DNA of 13,044 nt, from IMG/VR virus record IMGVR_UViG_2531839486_000015; one strand, written 5' to 3'. Origin of the DNA: a virus. Lineage: Duplodnaviria; Heunggongvirae; Uroviricota; Caudoviricetes. Below, in pieces: positions 1 to 13,044 of this stretch. Position 1 is the stretch's first letter; each line of letters opens with the position of its first letter. The notes under the pieces are model-generated. The model saw only the letters and a program-made list of their open reading frames with translations, made no database searches and was not told where the DNA came from. The position numbers and the translations under genes are program-made.

Positions 1-225
1 CGTAACAAGATGCCGCATACTGCGCCCCAACCTGTCCAGCTTCCAGACAACCAGCGTGTCTCCTGCCGATAGTGTCCTGAGCAGTTTTTTCAGCCCCGGT
101 CTGTCGGACTTAGTGCCGCTGATTTTATCCTCAAAAATCCGCTCACATCCCGCGCAGTTCAGCGCACTACGTTGCAAATCGGTGTTCTGGTCATTTGTTG
201 ACACGCGTACATAGCCAATAAGCAT
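1..225 (-). CDS. Serine DNA invertase, N-terminal 75 codons only (inverted duplicate of the 5' end of the 2334-2900 gene); 3' part lies beyond the window start, so complete gene vs fragment is undetermined
   Basis: Reverse complement of 1-225 is identical to 2334-2558 and encodes MLIGYVRVSTNDQNTDLQ... with the start codon at complement 223-225. Confidence 0.6.
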   Translation of the reverse strand, partial: MLIGYVRVSTNDQNTDLQRSALNCAGCERIFEDKISGTKSDRPGLKKLLRTLSAGDTLVVWKLDRLGRSMRHLVT

Positions 226-252
226 GATCATCTCCTTGAATAAAAATCGGGG

Positions 253-747
253 ATGATGCCAGTTAGTCGTAATCGCTGCATTTTCATAAACGTTGGTTTG
301 GGAGAAGCGGCAAAACGAAATGTGGGCAACGGGGAAAACCAAATCCCTGATATGTCTTTCTGGACGGTTACTGGTGGCAATGGAAATTTTGTGATTCGTC
401 AACCTGACGGGCTAATCATTCAGATGGTTACTGTAAGTATAAGCGGTCCAGTGGCGATGAATGGAATGACTGATAATGCTTATGCCATTACAGGTTCTAA
501 TAAGTCTTATATTGCCACAGCCACATTGCCCTTTGTATTTCCTAATAAGGTGCTGGGCGTTATCCCTCTGGTATCAACAACAGTTTATGGTGGTGTATCC
601 AGTAATATTACAGGTTCATACGCGACGGCGGTTTGTTCTTTTGCCGCTGTCAGGGGGAATAATACGATTGTGTTCAAAGTCGACAAACCACTGAATGCAG
701 CCTTTCCTTTAGATACCAGCGTCTCAGCGTTAATCATTGGACGGTAA
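253..747 (+). CDS. Tail-fibre C-terminal (receptor-binding) variable cassette A; ORF as drawn starts at an ATG in the flank, and unique sequence begins after the crossover site at codon ~19
   Basis: 164-aa ORF immediately followed by, and stop-overlapping, a tail-fibre assembly gene. The first 18 residues (MMPVSRNRCIFINVGLGE) are shared with the opposing cassette because they are encoded in the inverted repeat. Weak Shine-Dalgarno; in-frame TAA at 241-243 upstream. Confidence 0.5.
   Translation: MMPVSRNRCIFINVGLGEAAKRNVGNGENQIPDMSFWTVTGGNGNFVIRQPDGLIIQMVTVSISGPVAMNGMTDNAYAITGSNKSYIATATLPFVFPNKVLGVIPLVSTTVYGGVSSNITGSYATAVCSFAAVRGNNTIVFKVDKPLNAAFPLDTSVSALIIGR
281..306. other. 26-bp Hin/Gin-type inversion crossover site (left): ttttcataaacg-tt-ggtttgggagaa
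   Basis: Two 12-bp imperfect inverted half-sites around a 2-bp core. On the reverse strand it reads TTCTCCCAAACC AA CGTTTATGAAAA, which resembles hix/gix sites as I recall them (TTCTTGAAAACCAAGGTTTTTGATAA-like). It lies exactly where the sequence between the two arms becomes unique. Confidence 0.65.
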
Positions 748-749
748 GA

Positions 750-1193
750 ATGAACTCAGTATTCTTTTCACCCGGAAGTAAAAGTTTTTATCTGCAAGAA
801 TTGTTTCCAGAATATGAGGATGCGGGAACGCTTCCTGATGATGTTATTGAAATTACCAGAGAAACATATGAGCAATTTCTTGGGCTGCATCCTGAAGGGA
901 AAGAGATTGGCGCTGACAGTTCAGGACGGCCAGTATGGATTAATTCCCCACCACCTTCAAAAGAGGATGAGGTATTGACGGCTGAAATGAAAAAAATATC
1001 TTTGGTTTCAGAAGCCAATACCTACATCAATACCCATCAGTGGCCTGGCAAAGCTGCTATTGGTCGTCTGAAAGGTGACGAGCTGGAACAATATAATTTA
1101 TGGCTGGATTATCTGGACGCACTGGAACTGGTTGATCCCTCCAGTGCTCCAGATATTGAATGGCCTACGCCTCCGGCAGTTCAGGCCAGATGA
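750..1193 (+). CDS. Tail-fibre assembly chaperone (Tfa family), cassette A
   Basis: 147 aa; position directly after the tail-fibre cassette; C-terminal ...DIEWPTPP... motif resembles the conserved Tfa C-terminus (compare cassette B ...VIWPELPEA). Confidence 0.7.
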   Translation: MNSVFFSPGSKSFYLQELFPEYEDAGTLPDDVIEITRETYEQFLGLHPEGKEIGADSSGRPVWINSPPPSKEDEVLTAEMKKISLVSEANTYINTHQWPGKAAIGRLKGDELEQYNLWLDYLDALELVDPSSAPDIEWPTPPAVQAR

Positions 1194-1767
1194 CATTCGG
1201 CACGGTGCTGGTATCTGTTGCCATCACCGCGTCAATATAATCCAGCACAGCGTTAAGCCGGGTTGTTTCTGCCTGCGTCAGTTTCCGTCCGGCCTGTAAT
1301 TTCAGCTGAATCAGACTGATGGAAGCCATTGCAGCATCAATCAGTGACTGGCGCTGTGCTTCTGCCGCGTCTACTGCGGCGTTATGCTGTGCTTCAGTAT
1401 CGGTCACCCATTTCTCACCATCCCATTTATCGTATGGAGATAAAGGGGCGATAGTGGTTGTATTTTCAGGGTAATCACCCGGAGCTTTGATTTCTTTTGA
1501 TTCTCCTGTTTCAGTGCTATAGACAATTTCACCACGGTGGTCTGGCACATATATCCATGAGTTAAAATCTTCAGAACGGCAAATTGCATAACCAGTTTTG
1601 TATGGGCCAGGAGCATCTAAACAGGAACATGCCGGAATGCCGACACCAATGGCAAGATATTCGGTTGATGTGGAAATATATTCCCGTGATTCACCATCAT
1701 AGTTATAGACGGAAATATTCCCCGCCTTCGTGGCAATAAGCTCGCTATTTAATACGGCGTTATCCAT
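1165..1767 (-). CDS. Tail-fibre assembly chaperone (Tfa family), cassette B
   Basis: 200 aa; N-terminus MDNAVLNSELIA... and C-terminus ...RLNAVLDYIDAV...VIWPELPEA are typical of lambdoid/Mu-type Tfa proteins. Start codon overlaps the stop of the upstream minus-strand tail-fibre cassette (TAATG at 1765-1769). Confidence 0.8.
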   Translation of the reverse strand: MDNAVLNSELIATKAGNISVYNYDGESREYISTSTEYLAIGVGIPACSCLDAPGPYKTGYAICRSEDFNSWIYVPDHRGEIVYSTETGESKEIKAPGDYPENTTTIAPLSPYDKWDGEKWVTDTEAQHNAAVDAAEAQRQSLIDAAMASISLIQLKLQAGRKLTQAETTRLNAVLDYIDAVMATDTSTVPNVIWPELPEA

Positions 1768-2306
1768 TATGCAGCCCTCACGATATAGTTAAATGCAATA
1801 TTACGTGGACGCGTTTCTGAGGCTGCGGCACCTAAACCAGCCACTGATTGTTTATATGTTTTAAAGGTTCCATAATCCGGTGCTGGTAATCCGGCATCGT
1901 TTGTGTTTCCTCTTTTGATAATGTCAGTGCCACTATTTACCCAGCTTTCATCAAAATAAAAATTAATCGTTGCATCAGTCACAATCGTGGATCTTGACGG
2001 TAATCCATGAGCATGATCCTCCGTTGCATACCCCTGAACAGTGAGAAGACTTCGCCCATTATCTACACCACGCCCATCATCCCAGCCACGAATAAACTCA
2101 CCGCGTAAATCAGGCAATTTATTTGTCGGGTAAGCCTTCGCCAGCTTAGGATATTCAACGGCAGAAAAAGCCGCACCGTTACATTTCAGCCAGCCAGTAG
2201 GCGGTGTTGCAGAAGGCCACGGAACAGGCACACCAACGGGTAATGCCGAACCTTCTCCCAAACCAACGTTTAAGAAAATGCAGCGATTACGACTAACTGG
2301 CATCAT
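1767..2306 (-). CDS. Tail-fibre C-terminal variable cassette B with phage tail-collar-like domain
   Basis: 179 aa; after the shared 18-aa leader it contains ...WPSATPPTGWLKCNGAAFSAVEYPKLA...LPDLRGEFIRGWDDGRG..., the hallmark motif of the phage tail-fibre collar domain. Confidence 0.7.
   Translation of the reverse strand: MMPVSRNRCIFLNVGLGEGSALPVGVPVPWPSATPPTGWLKCNGAAFSAVEYPKLAKAYPTNKLPDLRGEFIRGWDDGRGVDNGRSLLTVQGYATEDHAHGLPSRSTIVTDATINFYFDESWVNSGTDIIKRGNTNDAGLPAPDYGTFKTYKQSVAGLGAAASETRPRNIAFNYIVRAA
2253..2278. other. 26-bp Hin/Gin-type inversion crossover site (right): ttctcccaaacc-aa-cgtttaagaaaa, inverted relative to 281-306
   Basis: Inverted copy of the 281-306 site, differing at one base in the outer half-site (2273 vs 286). 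It sits 50-56 bp upstream of the invertase start. Confidence 0.65.
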
Positions 2307-2558
2307 CCCCGATTTTTATTCAAGGAGATGATCATGCTTATTGGCTATGTACGCGTGTCAACAAATGACCAGAACACCGATTTGCAACGTAGTGCGCTGA
2401 ACTGCGCGGGATGTGAGCGGATTTTTGAGGATAAAATCAGCGGCACTAAGTCCGACAGACCGGGGCTGAAAAAACTGCTCAGGACACTATCGGCAGGAGA
2501 CACGCTGGTTGTCTGGAAGCTGGACAGGTTGGGGCGCAGTATGCGGCATCTTGTTACG
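2253..2558. repeat. Right arm of the long inverted repeat; covers the crossover site, the invertase leader and the first 75 codons of the invertase
   Basis: Same comparison as the left arm. The right arm extends at least to 2558 and may be longer, since the left arm is cut by the window edge. Confidence 0.9.
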
Positions 2559-2900
2559 CTGATAGAAGAGTTACGCCAGCGTGGTGTGAATTTCAGAAGC
2601 CTGACTGACAGTATTGATACCAGTACCCCAATGGGCCGTTTCTTTTTTCATGTCATGGGTGCCCTGGCTGAAATGGAACGCGAACTGATAGTTGAACGTA
2701 CCAGGGCAGGGCTGGCTGCAGCTCGTGCCAAAGGCAGAGTAGGTGGACGCCGTCCTAAGTTGACCACCGAACAGTGGGCACAGATTGGGCGTTTACTCGA
2801 GGCCGGAGAATCAAGACAGCGTATTGCACTGATTTTTGATGTAGGCGTTTCTACCATTTATAGAAAATTTCCGGCAAATAAGAGCAATGAATCCCCCTGA
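2334..2900 (+). CDS. Site-specific serine DNA invertase, Gin/Pin/Hin/Cin family
   Basis: MLIGYVRVSTNDQNTDLQR... N-terminus with catalytic Ser9 context; ...VVWKLDRLGRS...; C-terminal helix-turn-helix ...GVSTIYRKF. AAGGAG at 2322-2327 sits 6 nt before the ATG at 2334; the longer ORF from 2328 has no spacing to that Shine-Dalgarno. Confidence 0.92.
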   Translation: MLIGYVRVSTNDQNTDLQRSALNCAGCERIFEDKISGTKSDRPGLKKLLRTLSAGDTLVVWKLDRLGRSMRHLVTLIEELRQRGVNFRSLTDSIDTSTPMGRFFFHVMGALAEMERELIVERTRAGLAAARAKGRVGGRRPKLTTEQWAQIGRLLEAGESRQRIALIFDVGVSTIYRKFPANKSNESP

Positions 2901-2948
2901 ATCAGCATTATTTTGATTATCCCTGCAAGTAGACAAATACCGTCATTT

Positions 2949-2966
2949 TGTGTGAATAACGACACA
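2949..2966 (+). promoter_or_regulatory. Candidate Ogr/Delta activator binding site (TGT-N12-ACA) of a P2-type late promoter upstream of FI
   Basis: TGTGTGAATAACGACACA fits TGT-N12-ACA exactly, 77-94 bp upstream of the FI start codon, in the 142-bp gap between the invertase and FI. This is consistent with the site being centred near -55 of a late promoter. Confidence 0.45.
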
Positions 2967-3042
2967 ACTGCGCTTAGCTGTTTGTCAGGCACAATCACTT
3001 CAACATAGGGCGAAGCCTAATCCAATCAGGAGGTTCGCCACT

Positions 3043-4215
3043 ATGGCTCAGGATTACCACCACGGGGTGCGCGTTGTTGAAGTCAACGAAGGCACCCGAT
3101 CTATTACCACGGTGAGCACCGCCATCGTGGGTATGGTCTGCACGGGCGATGATGCCGATGCAAAAATGTTTCCTCTTAATAAACCCGTGCTGATCACTGA
3201 TGTGCTGACTGCCAGCGGTAAAGCGGGTGAGTCAGGTACTCTGGCCCGTTCGCTGGATGCCATCGCTGACCAGGCAAAACCCGTGACCATTGTTGTGCGT
3301 GTGCCGCAGGGTGAAACGGAAGACGAAACCACGACCAATATCATCGGCGCAGTGACTGCTGAAGGTAAAAAAACAGGTATGAAAGCCCTGTTATCTGCCC
3401 AGTCACAGCTCGGCGTTAAACCGCGCATTCTCGGCGTGCCAGGCCACGACACCAAGGCGGTAGCTACTGAGTTGCTAAGCGTGGCGCAAAGCCTGCGTGG
3501 ATTTGCTTACCTGTCAGCGTATGGCTGCAAGACAGTGCAGGAGGCGATCACTTACCGCGAAAACTTCAGCCAGCGTGAAGGGATGCTGATCTGGCCTGAC
3601 TTTACTGGCTGGGACACGGTGCTGAATGCCGAAGCAACGGCATATGCCACCGCCCGTGCGCTTGGTCTGCGCGCCAAAATTGACGAGCAGACCGGATGGC
3701 ACAAAAGCCTGTCCAACGTGGGCGTGAACGGTGTCACCGGAATTTCTGCAGATGTGTTCTGGGATCTGCAGGACCCGGCAACCGATGCAGGTCTGCTGAA
3801 CCAGAACGACGTCACCACGCTTGTGCGTAAAGACGGTTTCCGCTTCTGGGGTTCCCGCTGCCTGAGTGATGACCCGCTCTTTGCCTTCGAAAACTACACC
3901 CGCACGGCGCAGGTGCTGATGGACACGATTGCAGAAGCACACATGTGGGCGGTGGATAAACCTCTTAACCCGTCGCTGGCCCGCGACATTATCGAAGGTA
4001 TCCGCGCCAAAATGCGCAGCCTGGTCAGTCAGGGCTATCTCATTGGTGGTGATTGCTGGCTGGATGAGTCGGTGAACGACAAAGACACGCTGAAAGCCGG
4101 AAAACTCACCATCGACTATGACTACACGCCAGTGCCGCCACTTGAAAATCTGATGCTGCGCCAGCGCATCACCGATCAGTACCTGGTGAATTTTGCCAGC
4201 CAGGTCAGCGCGTAA
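3043..4215 (+). CDS. FI: Contractile tail sheath protein (P2 gpFI-like)
   Basis: 390 aa; N-terminus [19 protein letters not shown]...[10 protein letters not shown]... is characteristic of P2 FI sheath; AGGAGG Shine-Dalgarno 9 nt upstream; first gene of the late operon. Confidence 0.9.
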
Positions 4216-4224
4216 GGGGACAAC

Positions 4225-4740
4225 ATGGCTTTACCACGCAAATTAAAACATCTGAACCTGTTTAACGACGGGAACAACTGGCAGGGGATCGTAGAGTCGC
4301 TGACGCTGCCGAAATTCACCCGCAAATATGAGAAGTATCGCGGCGGCGGAATGCCGGGGGCAGTAGATGTGGATCTGGGGCTTGATGACAGTGCGCTGGA
4401 CACAGAATTTTCCATTGGTGGTACTGAACTGCTGCTGTTTAAGCAGATGGGCAAAGCCACTGTGGATGGCATCCAGCTGCGCTTTACCGGCTCTATCCAG
4501 CGTGACGATACCGGGGAAGTGCAGGCTGTGGAGCTTGTGGTGCGTGGACGTCACAAAGAAGTGGATTCCGGCGAGTGGAAGACGGGCGAAAGCAACACCA
4601 CCAAAGTGACCAGTACCAACAGCTACGCGAAGCTGACCATCAATGGTGAGGTGCTCTATGAAGTGGACCTTATCAACATGGTGGAAATTGTGGATGGTGT
4701 GGACCTGATGGAAGCACACCGCAACGCACTCGGCCTCTGA
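4225..4740 (+). CDS. FII: Tail tube protein (P2 gpFII-like)
   Basis: 171 aa, size and position immediately after the sheath gene; Shine-Dalgarno AAGGGGA upstream. Confidence 0.88.
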   Translation: MALPRKLKHLNLFNDGNNWQGIVESLTLPKFTRKYEKYRGGGMPGAVDVDLGLDDSALDTEFSIGGTELLLFKQMGKATVDGIQLRFTGSIQRDDTGEVQAVELVVRGRHKEVDSGEWKTGESNTTKVTSTNSYAKLTINGEVLYEVDLINMVEIVDGVDLMEAHRNALGL

Positions 4741-4794
4741 TCTATCTGAACGGCGCGGGATACCGCGCCAGAACCCAATTTAAAGGACAGCAAA

Positions 4795-5097
4795 ATGAGC
4801 GATAAGCAGACTGAAAAGACCATTCAACTGGATACCCCCATCAAGCGCGGTAAAACGGAAATCACCGAAATTGTGCTGCGTAAACCGCAGTCCGGTGCGC
4901 TGCGCGGTACACGCCTGCAGGCCATTATGGATATGGATGTAAACGCGATGATGACCGTGATCCCCCGCATCTCCAGTCCGGCACTGACTGCACAGGAAAT
5001 TGCAGAGATGGACCCGGCAGATCTCACTGCCATGTCGGTTGAGGTTGTCACTTTTTTGTTGAAGAAGTCGGTGCTTGCCGGTTTACCGACAGCCTGA
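4795..5097 (+). CDS. E: Tail assembly chaperone gpE (zero-frame product)
   Basis: 100-aa ORF between the tube and tape-measure genes; contains slippery heptamer T_TTT_TTG at 5052-5058 near its 3' end. Confidence 0.8.
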   Translation: MSDKQTEKTIQLDTPIKRGKTEITEIVLRKPQSGALRGTRLQAIMDMDVNAMMTVIPRISSPALTAQEIAEMDPADLTAMSVEVVTFLLKKSVLAGLPTA

Positions 5098-5231
5098 CGG
5101 TTGACGATCTGGTGGCAGATATCGCCACCATTTTTCACTGGCCGCCATCCGTTACTGACGTTATGCCGCTGACCGAAGTGCTGGAATGGCGGTATAAAGC
5201 GATTCAGAGAAGCGGGGCCAACGATGAGTGA
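4795..5231 (+). CDS. E: Tail assembly chaperone gpE+E' (-1 programmed frameshift product; join 4795..5058 with 5058..5231)
   Basis: After a -1 slip at 5052-5058 the -1 frame stays open for 57 codons (VEEVGACRFTDSLTVDDLVADIATIFHWPPSVTDVMPLTEVLEWRYKAIQRSGANDE) to TGA at 5229-5231, overlapping the T start at 5224. Total about 145 aa, close to P2 E+E' size as I recall it. Confidence 0.65.
5052..5058 (+). other. -1 ribosomal frameshift slippery heptamer TTTTTTG (X_XXY_YYZ in the gpE frame)
   Basis: Codons ACT TTT TTG in the E frame; heptamer directly visible in the sequence. Confidence 0.65.
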
Positions 5232-8200
5232 TAACAACCTGCGTCTGCAGGTCATTCTTAATGCGGTTGACAAGCTCACCCGCCCATTTCGATCTGCGCA
5301 GGCCAGTTCAAGAGAACTGGCTGCTGCTGTCAAAAAATCCCGCGATGCAATAAAGCAGCTTGATCAGGCCGGGAGCAGTCTGGACAGCTTCCGAAAGCTG
5401 CAGGCAGAAAATCAGAAATTAGGCGACAGGCTGAACTATGCCCGCCAGCGTGCAAATTTGCTCAGTCAGGAACTGGGTGCGATGGGGCCGCCTTCGCAAC
5501 GTCAGGTTGTTGCTCTGGGCCGTCAACGGCTGGCTGTTCAGCGCCTGGAAGAACGCCAGAAAAAGCTGCAGCAGCAGACGGCGCTTGTGCGTGCTGAACT
5601 GTACCGGGCGGGAATTTCTGCGAAAGACGATGCGGGAGCAACTGCCCGTTTAGCCCGTGAAACATCACGTTATAACCAGGAACTTTCGAAACAGGAGGCG
5701 CGGCTGAAGCGACTGGGGGAAGCTCAGCGCAGGATGAATGCAGCGCGTGTCAGTTATGCCCGTTCGCTGGAGGTGCGTGATCGTATTGCAGGTGCCGGAG
5801 CCACCACCACGGCTGCAGGGCTGGCAATGGGCGCACCAGTGATGGCGGCAGTAAAAAGCTATACCAGCATGGAAGATGCCATGAAAGGTGTGGCAAAGCA
5901 GGTCAATGGTCTGCGTGACGATAATGGCAACCGCACTGCACGTTTTTATGAAATGCAGGATGCCATCAAGGCTGCCAGCGAACAGTTGCCGATGGAAAAC
6001 GGTGCGGTGGATTTCGCTGCACTGGTTGAAGGTGGTGCGCGCATGAACGTCGCAAACCCTGACGACAGTTGGGAAGATCAGAAACGTGACCTGCTGGCCT
6101 TCGCCAGTACGGCAGCAAAGGCGGCAACAGCCTTTGAGCTGCCAGCGGATGAACTGTCAGAAAGTCTGGGGAAAATCGCCCAGCTCTACAAAATCCCCAC
6201 CCGCAATATTGAACAGCTCGGTGATGCGCTGAACTATCTGGATGATAACGCCATGTCGAAAGGGGCAGACATCATTGATGTGATGCAACGTCTGGGCGGT
6301 GTGGCTGACCGTCTGGATTATCGTAAAGCGGCGGCGCTGGGTTCCACCTTCCTGACACTGGGCGCTGCGCCAGAGGTTGCAGCCAGTGCAGCAAACGCGA
6401 TGGTGCGTGAATTGTCCATTGCCACCATGCAAAGCAAAAGTTTCTTTGAAGGGATGAATCTGCTGAAACTCAATCCTGAAGTGATTGAAAAGCAGATGAC
6501 GAAGGATGCGATGGGAACCATCCAGCGCGTGCTGGAGAAGGTAAACGCGCTGCCGCAGGACAAGCGCCTGTCTGCCATGACTATGTTGTTTGGTAAAGAG
6601 TTTGGCGATGACGCGGCGAAACTGGCAAACAACCTGCCGGAACTGCAGCGTCAGTTAAAACTGACAGCGGGCAATGATGCGCTCGGCTCCATGCAGAAAG
6701 AATCCGACATTAACAAGGATTCACTTTCTGCGCAGTGGTTGCTGGTCAAAACCGGAGCGCAGAACACCTTCAGCAGCCTGGGCGAAACGCTGCGCCAGCC
6801 GCTGATGGATATTCTGTACACGGTGAAAAGCGTCACGGGGGCGTTGCGTCGCTGGGTGGAAGCTAACCCGGAACTGACAGGCACACTGATGAAAGCATCG
6901 GCTGTTGTGGCTGCGGTTACCGTCGGCCTCGGCACCTTAGCGGTGGCGCTGGCTGCAGTGCTGGGGCCGCTGGCAGTGATCCGTCTGGGATTCTCTGTGT
7001 TGGGTATCAAAACGTTATCTTCCGTTACGGCAGCAGTAACTCGAACCAGCAGCGCGTTGTCCTGGCTGGCTGGCGCGCCACTGGCACTGCTGCGACGCGG
7101 GCTTGCTTCATCGGGCAACGCCGCAGGGTTACTTACTGCGCCGTTGTCGTCTTTGCGCCGCACGGCATCACTGACGGGAAATGTCCTGAAAACTGTAGCA
7201 GGTGCGCCGGTTGCACTTTTGCGGTCTGGATTATCCGGTTTACGTGCTGTTGCTGTGATGTTTATGAATCCTCTGGCGGTACTGCGCGGTGGACTGGCCG
7301 CCGCAGGCACGGTGCTGCGAGTACTGGCATCTGGTCCACTGGCGATGCTGCGCGTTGCCCTGTATGCCATATCTGGTCTGTTAGGTGCTCTGCTCAGTCC
7401 GATAGGTCTTGTGGTTACTGCACTGGCGGGCGTGGCGCTGGTTGTCTGGAAATACTGGCAACCCATCACCGCATTTCTCGGTGGCGTGGTGGAAGGATTC
7501 AAAGCGGCGGCAGGTCCCATCAGTGCAGCGTTCGAACCGCTTAAGCCCGTGTTCCAGTGGATTGGCGACAAAGTGCAGGCGCTGTGGGGCTGGTTTACTG
7601 ATCTGCTGACGCCCGTTAAGTCGACCTCTGCCGAACTGCAGAGCGCAGCGGCAATGGGGCGACGATTCGGGGAGGCACTGGCGGAAGGGCTGAATATGGT
7701 CATGCATCCGCTGGACTCCCTGAAATCCGGCGTTTCCTGGTTGCTGGATAAACTCGGCATTGTCAGTAAAGAGGCTGCAAAGGCGAAACTGCCGGAAAGC
7801 GTGACGCGTCAGCAACCTGCGACGGTGAATGCAGACGGTAAAGTGATGATGCCATCGGGTGGTTTTCCGTCATGGGGATATGGCTTTGCGGGGATGTATG
7901 ACAGCGGCGGCTATATCCCGCGCGGGCAGTTCGGCATTGTCGGTGAAAACGGGCCGGAAATTGTCAACGGTCCGGCAAACGTGACCAGCCGGAGAAATAC
8001 CGCTGCACTGGCTGCGGTTGTCGCCGGAATGATGGGAGTTGCTGCCGCGCCAGCAGAGCTTCCACCGTTGCATCCTTTGGCGCTTCCCGCGAAAGGCGGT
8101 GAAGCGATGGTGAGTCGCGTAGCTGCTGTGCCGCCCGTTCACCGGATTGAGGCACCGACGCAGATCATCATCCAGACGCAGCCAGGACAAAGTGCGCAGG

Positions 8201-8301
8201 ATATTGCGCGGGAGGTGGCCCGCCAGCTTGATGAACGTGAACGCAGGCTGAAGGCAAAAGCCAGGAGTAACTACAGCGATCAGGGGGGATACGACGCATG
8301 A
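5224..8301 (+). CDS. T: Tail tape measure protein (P2 gpT-like)
   Basis: 1025 aa; coiled-coil-rich N-terminal third, a central hydrophobic region with tandem ~22-aa repeats, and its position after E/E'. Confidence 0.9.
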   Translation: MSDNNLRLQVILNAVDKLTRPFRSAQASSRELAAAVKKSRDAIKQLDQAGSSLDSFRKLQAENQKLGDRLNYARQRANLLSQELGAMGPPSQRQVVALGRQRLAVQRLEERQKKLQQQTALVRAELYRAGISAKDDAGATARLARETSRYNQELSKQEARLKRLGEAQRRMNAARVSYARSLEVRDRIAGAGATTTAAGLAMGAPVMAAVKSYTSMEDAMKGVAKQVNGLRDDNGNRTARFYEMQDAIKAASEQLPMENGAVDFAALVEGGARMNVANPDDSWEDQKRDLLAFASTAAKAATAFELPADELSESLGKIAQLYKIPTRNIEQLGDALNYLDDNAMSKGADIIDVMQRLGGVADRLDYRKAAALGSTFLTLGAAPEVAASAANAMVRELSIATMQSKSFFEGMNLLKLNPEVIEKQMTKDAMGTIQRVLEKVNALPQDKRLSAMTMLFGKEFGDDAAKLANNLPELQRQLKLTAGNDALGSMQKESDINKDSLSAQWLLVKTGAQNTFSSLGETLRQPLMDILYTVKSVTGALRRWVEANPELTGTLMKASAVVAAVTVGLGTLAVALAAVLGPLAVIRLGFSVLGIKTLSSVTAAVTRTSSALSWLAGAPLALLRRGLASSGNAAGLLTAPLSSLRRTASLTGNVLKTVAGAPVALLRSGLSGLRAVAVMFMNPLAVLRGGLAAAGTVLRVLASGPLAMLRVALYAISGLLGALLSPIGLVVTALAGVALVVWKYWQPITAFLGGVVEGFKAAAGPISAAFEPLKPVFQWIGDKVQALWGWFTDLLTPVKSTSAELQSAAAMGRRFGEALAEGLNMVMHPLDSLKSGVSWLLDKLGIVSKEAAKAKLPESVTRQQPATVNADGKVMMPSGGFPSWGYGFAGMYDSGGYIPRGQFGIVGENGPEIVNGPANVTSRRNTAALAAVVAGMMGVAAAPAELPPLHPLALPAKGGEAMVSRVAAVPPVHRIEAPTQIIIQTQPGQSAQDIAREVARQLDERERRLKAKARSNYSDQGGYDA

Positions 8302-8783
8302 TGATGGTGCTGGGATTGTACGTGTTTATGCTGCGCACCGTTCCGTATCAGGAACTGCAGTATCAACGCAGCTGGCGACATGCGGCAAACAGTCGGGTAA
8401 ACCGACGTCCGTCCACGCAGTTTCTGGGACCGGAAAACGACATGCTGACGCTTTCCGGTGTTCTTATGCCGGAAATAACAGGCGGCAGGCTGTCGTTGCT
8501 GGCACTGGAGCAGATGGCAGAACAGGGGAAAGCATGGCCCCTGATTGAAGGCAGCGGCACGATTTACGGCATGTATGTGATTGAGGGACTGAATCAGACT
8601 AAAACGGAGTTTTTCCGCGACGGTATGCCGCGCCGGATTGAGTTCACCCTGTCGCTAAAACGCGTGGATGAATCCCTGCCCGATATGTTCGGTGATCTCA
8701 GTGCGCAACTGAATAATCTGCAGGGAACGGCAACATCTGCCTTAAGCGATATCAGTAAAACGGTGGGAGGGCTGCTGTCGTGA
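8298..8783 (+). CDS. U: Tail protein gpU-like
   Basis: 161 aa; ATGA start/stop overlap with T; position and size match P2 U. Confidence 0.8.
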   Translation: MMMVLGLYVFMLRTVPYQELQYQRSWRHAANSRVNRRPSTQFLGPENDMLTLSGVLMPEITGGRLSLLALEQMAEQGKAWPLIEGSGTIYGMYVIEGLNQTKTEFFRDGMPRRIEFTLSLKRVDESLPDMFGDLSAQLNNLQGTATSALSDISKTVGGLLS

Positions 8784-9880
8784 ATTTCAGCTCTGAACTG
8801 CTTAACAAAGGCAACAAAACTCCGGCATTCAGCATCAGTATTGAAGGCAGGGATATCACCACTGTGCTGGACAACCGCCTGATGGGGCTGACGCTGACGG
8901 ATAACCGGGGCTTTGAAGCGGACCAGCTTGATCTGGAGCTGGACGACGCCGATGGAAAAATCGTGCTGCCGCGCCGTGGTGCGGTCATTACGCTGGCGCT
9001 GGGCTGGAAGGGGCAGCCGCTTTTCCCGAAAGGGGCATTCACGGTGGACGAGATTGAACACACTGGCGCACCGGACCGCCTGACTATCCGGGCGCGAAGT
9101 GCTGATTTTCGTGAAACGCTGAATACCCGTCGTGAAAAGTCGTGGCACAAGACCACTGTCGGGGAAGTGGTGAAGGAAATAGCCGCGCGTCATAAGCTGA
9201 AGATGGCACTGGGTAAAGACCTGTCGGATAAGCCCGTGGAGCATATAGACCAGACTAATGAGAGTGACGGCAGTTTTCTGATGCGGCTGGCGCGCCAGTA
9301 CGGTGCCATCGCGTCGGTGAAAAATGGCAATCTGTTATTCATCCGGCAGGGACAGGGCAAAAGCGCCAGCGGTAAACCACTGCCGGTGATCTCAATCACA
9401 CGTAAGGACGGCGACAGTCACCGCTTTACCCTGGCAGATCGCGGAGCCTACACGGGCGTAATTGCCAGTTGGTTGCATACCCGCGAACCCGCGAAGAAAG
9501 AAAGCACCACGGTGAAGCGTAAGCGCAGGACTAAGAAGCAGAAGAAAGAGCCGGAAGCGAAGCAGGGCGATTACCTGGGGGGTACGGATGAAAACGTGCT
9601 GGTACTTAATCGCACTTATGCCAACCGGAGCAACGCCGAACGGGCAGCGAAAATGCAGTGGGAACGCCTGCAACGCGGCGTTGCATCATTCTCGCTACAA
9701 CTGGCGGAAGGGCGGGCAGATCTCTACACAGAAATGCCTGTGAAGGTCAGTGGCTTTAAACAGCCGATAGATGATGCGGAATGGACCATTACGACTCTGA
9801 CGCATACCGTCAGCCCCGATAACGGTTTTACAACCAGTCTGGAGCTTGAAGTGAGGATTGATGATTTCGAAATGGAATGA
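8780..9880 (+). CDS. D: Tail protein gpD-like (late gene D)
   Basis: 366 aa; GTG start overlapping the U stop, with GGGAGG Shine-Dalgarno 9 nt upstream; position before ogr as in P2. Confidence 0.8.
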   Translation: MNFSSELLNKGNKTPAFSISIEGRDITTVLDNRLMGLTLTDNRGFEADQLDLELDDADGKIVLPRRGAVITLALGWKGQPLFPKGAFTVDEIEHTGAPDRLTIRARSADFRETLNTRREKSWHKTTVGEVVKEIAARHKLKMALGKDLSDKPVEHIDQTNESDGSFLMRLARQYGAIASVKNGNLLFIRQGQGKSASGKPLPVISITRKDGDSHRFTLADRGAYTGVIASWLHTREPAKKESTTVKRKRRTKKQKKEPEAKQGDYLGGTDENVLVLNRTYANRSNAERAAKMQWERLQRGVASFSLQLAEGRADLYTEMPVKVSGFKQPIDDAEWTITTLTHTVSPDNGFTTSLELEVRIDDFEME

Positions 9881-9970
9881 TTCTTCGCAATGGAGAACTT
9901 TTAAGTTTGCAAAATGGAATAATGCGGTATCATTATTGTGAATTTAGCAAAAATGGGGAGAACTCGAAAA

Positions 9971-10189
9971 ATGATGATTTGCCCACTGTGTGGAAGTGCC
10001 GCCCATACTCGTAGCAGTTTTCAGGTATCTTCATTGACCAAAGAGCGTTACAACCAGTGCCAGAACATTAACTGCAGCCATACTTTTGTTACCCATGAAA
10101 CTTTTGTTCGTTCGATTGCAACGCCAAAAGAGTCAAATCCGGTTCAGCCGCATCCAATGAAATCAGGACAGGTGGCGCTCTCTCTTTGA
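9971..10189 (+). CDS. ogr: Ogr/Delta-family zinc-finger late transcription activator
   Basis: 72 aa from the ATG at 9971: MMICPLCGSAAHTRS...KERYNQCQNINCSHTF... with C-X2-C...C-X4-C zinc finger. This length matches P2 Ogr; the longer ORF from 9938 adds 11 residues not expected in the family. Confidence 0.85.
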   Translation: MMICPLCGSAAHTRSSFQVSSLTKERYNQCQNINCSHTFVTHETFVRSIATPKESNPVQPHPMKSGQVALSL

Positions 10190-10424
10190 CGCTGCCGCCA
10201 ATTTGTCGCCATCGTTAAAAAACAGCGCTTCTAACATCATGATTTTAAAAGGCATAAATTTCAGGCAACAAAAAACCCATCAACCTTGAACCGAAATGGC
10301 GGGGGTGATGGGCTCCACAAAATGGGGACATCAAAGAAAAGCAGTGGCACTAATTAAGACTGATGCCCTGCGGAAAAGTTCTGCGGTTGTGCAAAAAAAT
10401 TTCATTTTCAGGGCAACTTCAGTT

Positions 10425-12110
10425 TTATCCTAATCCTGGCCATACCATGACGATGATTGTCCCTGCCAGCGTCAGCAGGACGTTGGCGATTGCATAGGTG
10501 CCCGCATAGCCCAGCGCCGGGATGTTACTGCGAGCTGTATCACTGATGATCTCCATTGCCGGCGCGCAGGTACGTGCGCCCATCATTGCGCCGAACAACA
10601 GCGCGCGGTTCATTCGCAATACATAAGCACCGAACAAGAAACAGATAACCACGGGCACCAGACTGACAATCAATCCGGCAATCAACATCTGACCGCCAAT
10701 CGCGCCCAGGCCGTTATTAATACCGCTACCGGCGCTCAGACCAACGCCTGCCATAAACACCATCAAGCCGAACTCTTTCACCATGCTTAATGCACCCTGC
10801 GGAATGTAACCGAAGGTCGGGTGGTTAGCACGCATAAAGCCCAGCATAATTCCGGCGAATAACAACCCGGCAGCGTTCCCCATGCCGAAACTGAATGTGC
10901 TGAACTGGAAGGTGATCATCCCGATCATCAGCCCAATAACAAAGAAGGCGCAAAATGCCAGCAGGTCAGTGACCTGGCTGTGAATCGAGATAAAGCCGAT
11001 GCGATCGGCGATGGTTTTTACGCGACGGGCATCACCGCTGACTTGTAAAACGTCACCTTTGTTAAGCACGACGTTGTCATCTATCGGCATCTCAATCTGG
11101 CTACGAATGACGCGGGTAAGGAAGCAACCGTGATCGGTCAACTTCAGTTGTGCGAGACGTTTACCTACAGCGTTATGGTTTTTAACGACCACTTCTTCAG
11201 TGACGATACGCATGTCGAGAAGGTCACGATCGAAAACTTCTTTACCGTTACGGAAGCTGGGATCGAGTCGGGCATGGGCGTCGGGATAGCCTACCAACGC
11301 TATTTCATCGCCCATTTGTAGCACGGCATCACCGTCTGGATTTGCCAGAATCCCGTTACGTCGAATACGTTCAATGTAGCAGCCGGTTTGTCGATAAATA
11401 CCCAGTTCACGCAGATTTTTGCCGTCGGTCCAGGCCACCAGCTCCGGGCCGACGCGATAGGCGCGGATCACCGGTAAATAAACCTTACGGTTGGCATCAG
11501 TGTCCAGGCCACGTTCGCGGGCGATTTGCTGGGCGCTGGTCTGTAAGTCCTGATGCTGCAATTTCGGCAAGTAACGCGCACCAACAATCAAACTCACCAG
11601 ACCGATTAAATAGGTTAAGGCATACCCGAGGCTCAGATTATCCAGTGCCAGTGAGAGCTGCCTGCTTTCCATGCCGGAATGACGCAGTGTATCGCCAGCA
11701 CCGACCAGAACCGGTGTCGACGTCATAGAGCCTGCTAACATACCGGCCGTCAGGCCAATATCCCAGCCAAACAGCTTACCTAACCCTAAGGCGATCACCA
11801 GCGCACTGCCAACCATCACCAGTGCTAACATTAGGTAATTTTTCCCATCGCGAAAAAAAATGGAAAAAAAGTTCGGTCCGGCTTCAACCCCAACACAGAA
11901 AATAAACAGCATAAAGCCAAGATTAAGCGCATCGGTGTTAATGCTGAAATGTTGTTGGCCTAATAACAGCGATACGACTAAAACGCCAATGGAATTACCC
12001 AGTTGGATCGAACCAAGTCGTAACTTTCCGAGACATAGCCCAAGCGCGAGGACCACAAATAATAACAGAATGTAATTCCCATTTAACAATTCGGCGACGT
12101 TTATATTCAC
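10425..12110 (-). CDS. ybjL: Putative transport protein YbjL (AAE-family transporter with two cytoplasmic TrkA_C domains)
   Basis: 561 aa; [38 protein letters not shown]...; GTG start; recognised as E. coli YbjL. Confidence 0.9.
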
Positions 12111-12379
12111 GGAGGCTAACTTCTTGTTTACTAGTAAGCTGTTGAAAGAAATGGTAATTTACGATAATGTTTTTTACCAGAATTCAGGGCGCAGATTCAT
12201 TCAGCGCACCTAAACGATAGTAAAGTAACAATATATTTTACTAGTGTAATCACATTAGGTATCAACGGCTATATGAATTGCGTTGGCCTATATTAGCATG
12301 GAATGCGAAGCGGCTTTATCTTACTGAACGCCACACTGGCGAAAAATGTGTTCGATAGACGCAGTGTCAGGAGGAACGA

Positions 12380-12757
12380 GTGAAACATAAACAACGTTGG
12401 GCGGGGGCAATCTGCTGTTTTGTCCTCTTCATTGTGGTGTGCCTTTTTCTGGCGACGCACATGAAAGGCGCTTTTCGGGCTGCCGGGCATCCTGAAATCG
12501 GCTTGCTATTTTTCATTCTTCCTGGAGCAGTCGCCAGCTTCTTTTCACAGCGTAGAGAAGTCCTGAAACCTCTGTTTGGCGCAATGCTGGCGGCACCCTG
12601 TTCGATGCTCATTATGCGGCTGTTTTTTTCACCGACGCGCTCATTCTGGCAAGAGCTGGCATGGTTATTAAGTGCGGTGTTCTGGTGTGCGCTGGGGGCA
12701 CTGTGTTTCTTATTTATCAGTAGTTTGTTTAAACCACAGCACAGAAAAAATCAGTAA
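12380..12757 (+). CDS. ybjM: Inner membrane protein YbjM
   Basis: 125 aa hydrophobic protein; GTG start with AGGAGG Shine-Dalgarno at 12368-12373; lies between ybjL and grxA as in the E. coli K-12 order. Confidence 0.8.
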   Translation: MKHKQRWAGAICCFVLFIVVCLFLATHMKGAFRAAGHPEIGLLFFILPGAVASFFSQRREVLKPLFGAMLAAPCSMLIMRLFFSPTRSFWQELAWLLSAVFWCALGALCFLFISSLFKPQHRKNQ

Positions 12758-12777
12758 AGCCCTCAACGCGAGGGCTT
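12757..12777. terminator. Hairpin between convergent ybjM and grxA (stem aagccctc / gagggctt, 5-nt loop); T-run on the minus-strand side, likely the grxA terminator
   Basis: Perfect 8-bp inverted repeat at 12757-12764 / 12770-12777. The minus-strand transcript would read a hairpin followed by UUUUUUCUG (complement of 12741-12750). Confidence 0.45.
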
Positions 12778-12786
12778 GTCAGACGA

Positions 12787-13044
12787 TCAGGCGTCCAGAT
12801 TTTCTTTCACCCATGCAGCAAAATCGGTATAGCCGCCGATATGTTGCTGATCGACAAAAATCTGCGGCACGGTTTCTACGGGTTTACCTGCCTTTTGTTG
12901 TAGATCTTCTTTAGTGATCCCTTCCGCACGAATATCTACATAGTGATACTGAAAATCATCGTGTTCATTGCTCAATTTCTCAGCCAGATCTTTTGCACGC
13001 ACACAGTAAGGGCAACCCGGACGACCAAAAATAACGGTTTGCAT
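12787..13044 (-). CDS. grxA: Glutaredoxin 1
   Basis: 85 aa; MQTVIFGRPGCPYCVRAKDLAEKL... with CPYC active site; complete within the window (start codon at complement 13042-13044). Confidence 0.92.
   Translation of the reverse strand: MQTVIFGRPGCPYCVRAKDLAEKLSNEHDDFQYHYVDIRAEGITKEDLQQKAGKPVETVPQIFVDQQHIGGYTDFAAWVKENLDA

Follow-up and report, generated by a model that had tools for sequence, protein, structure and literature searches.

Invertible segments served by Gin/Cin/Pin/Hin (Din-family) invertases have been described as the G segment of Mu, the C segment of P1 and the P segment of e14, and in the P2-like prophages of E. coli EC958 and EPEC. The locus studied here shows the same biology, and shares with these switches a Gin-like serine invertase, a segment of ~2 kb, inverted 26-bp sites and two opposed tail-fibre sets. 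The only difference from them is that the contig shows an invertase start on both sides of the segment and no H constant region. In P2-like prophages, clonal cultures have been found to contain the segments in both orientations at once (Goldberg et al., 2014, PMC4272514). Additionally, tail-fibre inversions are reported to give spurious contigs, with a warning of 'artefactual duplications in phage regions' (Forde et al., 2014, PMC4134206).

A tail-fibre switch in a P2-like prophage beside ybjL

The window (the whole stretch of DNA that was analysed, 13,044 nt) corresponds to positions 2-13045 of draft contig APYD01000021.1 (121,686 bp), which belongs to the assembly GCA_000357025.2 of E. coli P0299438.4. 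Its limits, contig position 2 on one side and the start codon of grxA on the other (13042-13044, minus strand), look gene- or contig-defined. A literature search found no mention of the source accession. By exact-protein look-up with the invertase and the tfa protein, both of which are very common, the source assembly was not among the matches listed.

The features of the window are collected in Table 1. Gene content and sites are those of a standard Gin/Cin/Pin-type tail-fibre switch, carried by a P2-like prophage that has integrated next to ybjL. In ~490 complete E. coli genomes, at least 80% of the window is matched at one place, and every top-listed match has the tail module, which forms the right end of the prophage, beside ybjL. 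Domain matches give the invertase the layout of an N-terminal resolvase catalytic domain followed by a C-terminal HTH, and its residues 1-184 align to PDB 3uj3 and 4m6f, both 'DNA-invertase' (E = 4e-92). A Fis-dependent recombinational enhancer is expected within the 5' part of the invertase gene, as in Gin, Hin and Cin.

The segment holds two opposed sets, each made of a tail-fibre C-terminus and its cognate assembly gene. The crossover sites are inverted and share the central dinucleotide (core TT/AA at 293-294 and 2265-2266), a layout which agrees with the 26-bp sites listed for DNA invertases in Table 3 of PMC4134206. Both orientations occur among the homologous loci, in which the same invertase allele adjoins Sv (L009, L012, L015 and L026) or Sv' (L008, L010, L014 and L024). 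The constant part of the tail-fibre gene H is absent from this contig and present in the relatives L024-L026. In the window the Sv frame opens at an ATG at 253, within the inverted leader, and is preceded by an in-frame stop at 241-243. The headless junction ORFs at 253-747 (plus strand, 164 aa) and 1767-2303 (minus strand, 178 aa) were found on this contig only in 153 billion gene positions, and both are deposited as hypothetical proteins (e.g., ENC06669.1). These ORFs are annotation by-products of the switch state together with the assembly.

Table 1. Coordinates of the features in the window, and of the two junctions in NZ_CP182374.1
Feature	Location	Strand	Remarks
Inverted copy, first 75 invertase codons	1..225	-	Exact reverse complement of 2334-2558; partial Resolvase gene at contig edge; contig positions 2-226 of APYD01000021.1
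Inverted copy, invertase leader (allele 'a')	226..280	-	Reverse complement of 2279-2333
Left 26-bp crossover site	281..306		TTTTCATAAACG TT GGTTTGGGAGAA; base 286 (A) is the only mismatch to the right site
Variable tail-fibre C-terminus Sv	283..747	+	ORF 253-747, headless here
Tail-fibre assembly gene, Sv partner	750..1193	+	PF02413 Caudo_TAP
Alternative tail-fibre assembly gene, Sv' partner	1165..1767	-	PF02413 and PF28596
Alternative variable tail-fibre C-terminus Sv' (Collar domain)	1767..2278	-	PF07484
Right 26-bp crossover site	2253..2278		TTCTCCCAAACC AA CGTTTAAGAAAA
Gin/Cin/Pin-type serine DNA invertase, 188 aa	2334..2900	+	PF00239 (Resolvase) and PF02796 (HTH_7); leader 2279-2333
P2-like tail module: sheath, tube, E/E', tape measure, U, D; ogr-like gene	3043..10189	+	Pfam matches and annotation of homologous loci
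Chromosomal flank ybjL (-), ybjM (+), grxA (-)	10425..13044		RefSeq annotation of homologous loci
NZ_CP182374.1 junctions	L003 5286-7118; L016 and L017 26687-28573		Record ~2,141,687-2,143,573 and ~2,237,355-2,239,187

Comparison of the sites among loci revealed that this invertase-leader allele was paired with the outer half-site CGTTTAAGAAAA (2267-2278) in every locus examined (L006-L015, L024, L026, L028, L029 and L033), while other alleles mostly carry CGTTTATGAAAA, with two exceptions (the right-hand site of L003, and L022). This linkage suggests that site and enzyme are co-inherited. The cassette at 307-2252 is 99.8% identical to those of L018, L019, L021 and L023. In L021 and on the left side of L003 the invertase arm is only ~89% identical to that of the window, and the invertases measure 594-600 bp. 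In L018, L019 and L023 the downstream genes are arranged differently too: after the invertase come U and tape measure, which lie on the opposite strand. Judged from these comparisons, crossover-bounded cassettes appear to move between prophage backgrounds as units.

The inverted repeat at the contig end

Repeat search of the window revealed that 1-307 and 2252-2558 are reverse complements of each other, with 306 of 307 positions matching and 1944 nt between the arms; the runner-up inverted pair has 35 nt and 71% identity. Compared base by base, the arms have their sole mismatch at 286, which is A although the complement of 2273 would give T, and from 308 they diverge. Between 1-280 and the reverse complement of 2279-2558, all 280 positions are identical, and a perfect inverted repeat of 280 nt is far beyond chance. 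The initial annotation had described this exact match, the single mismatch, a repeat reaching at least 280 bp past the crossover site, and the anatomy of the region (crossover sites, with a leader and ~75 invertase codons on the minus strand cut by the edge), and all of this agrees with our comparison. As the window begins with the second base of the draft contig, the left arm forms the very end of that contig and offers no room for leftward extension; contig base 1, which lies one ahead of the window, also fits the repeat, giving an arm of 308 nt in the source contig.

An identical tape-measure protein was found on 23 contigs. Three of them (L024, L025 and L026) are resolved across the switch, and all three show the order V-W-J-I-H, segment, single invertase. 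Of these relatives L026 is the nearest, with 99.94% identity over window 2252-13044, and it has Sv' fused to the H constant region in a protein of 515 aa. Window 1-2269 matches the reverse of L026 5067-7335 with 99.78% identity; therefore, the arm and the segment together represent the flipped state of a single-invertase prophage. Several other drafts of this prophage break at the switch. One contig starts at the equivalent of window 2253 (L033) and another at 2268 (L030), while L029 ends 127 nt from the site, with ~110 nt of Sv' past the crossover site. In the sibling isolate P0299438.10 (L031) the contig begins at 2337, 3 bases after the invertase start codon, and the Broad scaffold L013 has N-gaps immediately past both sites. 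Across the collections, the tfa protein is confined to contigs of <2 kb in 79 of 243 blocks.

In our view, the left arm is an artefact, a fold-back with which a short-read draft contig ends, rather than a new gene arrangement, with a probability of roughly 0.85. An artefact of mixed orientation is favoured because the arm lies at the contig end, the arms are identical over the 280 nt past the site, the resolved relatives are normal and other drafts break at the same place; these are direct observations, as are the private differences described below. On this view E. coli P0299438.4 has a single P2-like prophage beside ybjL, whose invertible segment is an ordinary one of the Gin/Cin/Pin type. 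If both orientations of the segment were present in the culture, there would be reads for the invertase-Sv' and for the invertase-Sv junction, and the path of the assembler could have run from the invertase through the segment to the far crossover site. At that site, reads of the flipped state would lead back into the same invertase, now reversed, and the path would halt after ~300 nt, which is roughly one read or fragment length. Each junction would thus be real DNA, and the two need not sit on one molecule. In the genome, the segment is expected to adjoin on its left the constant part of the tail-fibre gene H, with the join at TTCTCGCATACC TT GGTTTGGGAGAA; modelled on L026, the junction would read …GGAAAGGATGTAGCTGGCC TTCTCGCATACC TT GGTTTGGGAGAA.

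The initial annotation had presented the cassette as flanked on both sides by invertase starts, which describes the contig correctly but probably not the genome, given that the arm ends a draft contig and that the H constant part stands at this place in L024-L026. Of the three options it had offered, the evidence favours the assembly chimera at an invertible region. The underlying switch is already of a known kind, and the double-invertase arrangement is almost certainly not a real feature. One point against an artefact is that real double-invertase junctions exist, as in NZ_CP182374.1.

Double-invertase junctions in complete genomes

A palindromic BLAST query (the reverse-complemented invertase, a spacer of N and the invertase) was searched against 5,426 complete E. 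coli genomes. Both arms were found only in NZ_CP182374.1 (E. coli bR_120_Kylling, complete), that is in 1 of the ~1,240 genomes with this invertase family, and head-to-head invertases with identical arms were found in none of the 5,426 genomes. We put the prior for a real fold-back at about 10^-3.

In NZ_CP182374.1, the ybjL locus has the arrangement invertase_b(rc)-segment-invertase_a. The complete order is tape measure-tube-sheath-invertase_b (minus strand), segment, invertase_a-sheath-…-ogr-ybjL, and the left-hand module ends at ogrK|pflB. The reciprocal junction, H_a-tfa-tfa'-H_b(rc), lies ~95 kb off, and both of its sites are TTCTCGCATACC TT GGTTTGGGAGAA. One junction has two outward-facing invertases, and at the other two inward-facing H genes share one segment. 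Both breakpoints fall exactly on 26-bp sites, and at the double-invertase junction the left site has TTTTCATAAACG and the right one TTTTCTTAAACG, as in the window. Each arm belongs to an invertase gene of its own, one of 594 and the other of 567 bp, with 88.8% identity across the arm. On these sequence grounds, the genome carries a reciprocal inversion of ~94-98 kb between the sites of two directly oriented P2-like prophages (rcdA/ybjL and pflB). A literature search found no published report of this inversion. Biologically, this side finding outweighs the fold-back of the window: 26-bp sites of the same kind in two different prophages can recombine and invert ~95 kb of chromosome, and therefore 'host-range switches' can occasionally drive chromosome rearrangement and the exchange of cassettes between prophages.

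In NZ_CM132301.1 (L001, near ssrA), a recombinase pseudogene of 123 bp (6013-6135), with its C-terminus missing, lies inverted directly left of the segment. A DUF262 gene is found beyond the pseudogene, and a complete, different recombinase on the right. The partial copy is 80.9% and the right-hand invertase 85.2% identical to the window arm, and the outer half-sites differ too. The arrangement resembles what recombination between two elements would leave behind after decay.

Base 286 and the origin of the left arm

In this invertase family the exchange takes place at the central dinucleotide, and the outer half-site stays with the invertase flank. A read of the flipped state would therefore be expected to have T at 286, the base found at the equivalent position of L026. 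In every other locus examined (13+ loci), this invertase-leader allele is linked to TTTTCTTAAACG. The combination of leader_a with TTTTCATAAACG was absent from all 13+ loci with this leader allele, and at full length it was found in none of the 5,426 complete E. coli genomes (best match 98.5%). The A at 286 is the base that other invertase alleles carry at the equivalent position. For a random error such agreement would be a mild coincidence, roughly 3-10% by our own estimate, because 5-11% of arm positions vary among alleles. Taken alone, the half-site at 286 would favour a distinct copy, and the initial annotation had regarded the mismatch as a weak argument for independent real copies.

Two observations take the force from this argument. 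Compared with both the sibling P0299438.10 and L026, the contig has five private differences in 10.7 kb, all of the form GG[T]->GG[G] (4359, 7128, 9579, 10305 and 11116). The change from GGT to GGG is a classic Illumina miscall pattern, and the five together are a signature of systematic sequencing error in the deposited assembly, in which single-base errors are thus to be expected. Besides, the 280 nt past the site are identical exactly where prophages differ by 5-20%. Over the 280-nt arm other invertase alleles are 80-95% identical, and some divergence would be expected of an independent prophage copy, whereas the arms of the window are 100% identical. The mismatch at 286 (T->A) itself differs in type from the GGT->GGG changes elsewhere in the contig. 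The private differences at 286, 447/450 and 567 crowd within 570 nt of the contig end. Those inside Sv, seen in comparison with L018, L019, L021 and L026, consist of a compensating 1-nt insertion and deletion 3 nt apart at 447-450 and a T/C difference at 567, and they could be errors or real strain differences. The simplest reading of this A is an erroneous consensus call at 286, in an assembly prone to such errors.

Three other sources of the A were discarded. Reads across the normal junction of the H constant part and the left site were rejected, because the half-site TTCTCGCATACC has G at this position. A localized conversion at crossover sequences (Iida and Hiestand-Nauer, 1986, cited in PMC4134206) was set aside because the base lies 7 nt from the core. 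Such conversion reportedly concerns the 2-bp core. A chimera of two prophages formed in a k-mer graph was also rejected, since a 12-mer spanning 275-286 would have to exist in the reads.

Alternatively, the arm could be a real product of the invertase, formed when the left-hand site of the ybjL prophage recombined with the right-hand site in another element, either a second P2-like prophage or a sister chromosome. Such an event would invert the interval between the sites and create two junctions, invertase(rc)-segment-invertase and H-segment-H(rc). This is the architecture at ybjL in NZ_CP182374.1, with its reciprocal junction ~95 kb off; that genome also shares the left TTTTCATAAACG and the right TTTTCTTAAACG with the window, and base 286 differs as the site of a second element would. 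However, the arms differ in NZ_CP182374.1, whereas the 280 nt of the window are identical even in the leader, a part in which prophages vary. Such inversions are rare, with 1 case in the ~1,240 genomes that have this invertase family, the arm ends with the contig after about one presumed read length, and the 121-kb contig crosses the tail module without the break expected from a long second copy. For a sister chromosome, the product would have T at 286 and would be an inviable inverted dimer. We regard recombination between copies of near-identical P2-like prophages (double lysogen or sister chromosome) in P0299438.4 as improbable. If it were true, the segment would have two invertase starts, two copies of any enhancer in the 5' end of the invertase gene and one diverged half-site, and NZ_CP182374.1 would be joined by a second natural case of a host chromosome rearranged by tail-fibre invertases. 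The 'type-b-like' segment of the window was also considered as a sign of inter-prophage origin, and this was rejected because L026 pairs the same segment with the same invertase allele natively.

The two remaining explanations are even less probable, and to much the same degree. The arm might be a real local inverted duplication or a prophage remnant, in which a truncated 5' fragment of the invertase was left beside the segment and 286 is a later point mutation. NZ_CM132301.1 shows that a truncated invertase start can persist on the 'wrong' side, but the partial copy in that genome is a different allele from the right-hand invertase and thus not duplicated exactly. The prophages most closely related to that of the window are intact and normal, and a tail-fibre gene without its constant part, closed off by the stop at 241-243, would disable a tail module that otherwise looks intact. 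Alternatively, a fold-back artefact could have received its A during consensus building or polishing, as a mosaic in which reads of a co-resident 'type-b' P2-like prophage, identical from 281 rightward with 286 as the only differing position of the outer half-site, out-voted the few flipped-state reads. The segments of L018, L019, L021 and L023, whose 99.8% identity was given above, indeed show TTTTCATAAACG TT GGTTTGGGAGAA gcggcaaaacgaaatg beside a different invertase leader. About one fifth of the top genomes listed carry two loci with this invertase family (4 places), and a mosaic predicts a boundary where the two leaders start to differ (275-286). Yet the co-resident type-b prophage in P0299438.4 is an assumption, and L026 has the same segment natively, with T at the equivalent of 286. 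As a k-mer graph cannot make the chimeric 12-mer, an overlap-consensus or mapping-based step would also be required.

A plain fold-back at the contig end carries several cautions for draft genomes. Invertible tail-fibre segments yield folded-back or duplicated sequence at the ends of draft contigs, and the same segments yield headless 'hypothetical protein' ORFs such as ENC06669.1 and its 178-aa partner. A difference of one base between two arms is no proof of two loci where the assembly has systematic errors.

Among described cases, those of PMC4134206 and PMC4272514 resemble the origin proposed for the window's left arm in that reads of mixed orientation at an invertase switch led to flanking phage sequence being duplicated in the assembly. 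In those cases the alternative orientation formed separate contigs in a PacBio assembly, whereas in the window it would be a fold-back of ~300 nt that ends a short-read contig. E. coli bR_120_Kylling (NZ_CP182374.1) and the window have in common the ybjL prophage family, the sites and the invertase(rc)-segment-invertase junction. In NZ_CP182374.1, kilobases of distinct flank extend on both sides, a reciprocal H-segment-H junction is present and the arms are different alleles; in the window, by contrast, the arm has only 308 nt in the source contig, matches the other arm except at base 286 and lies at a contig end.
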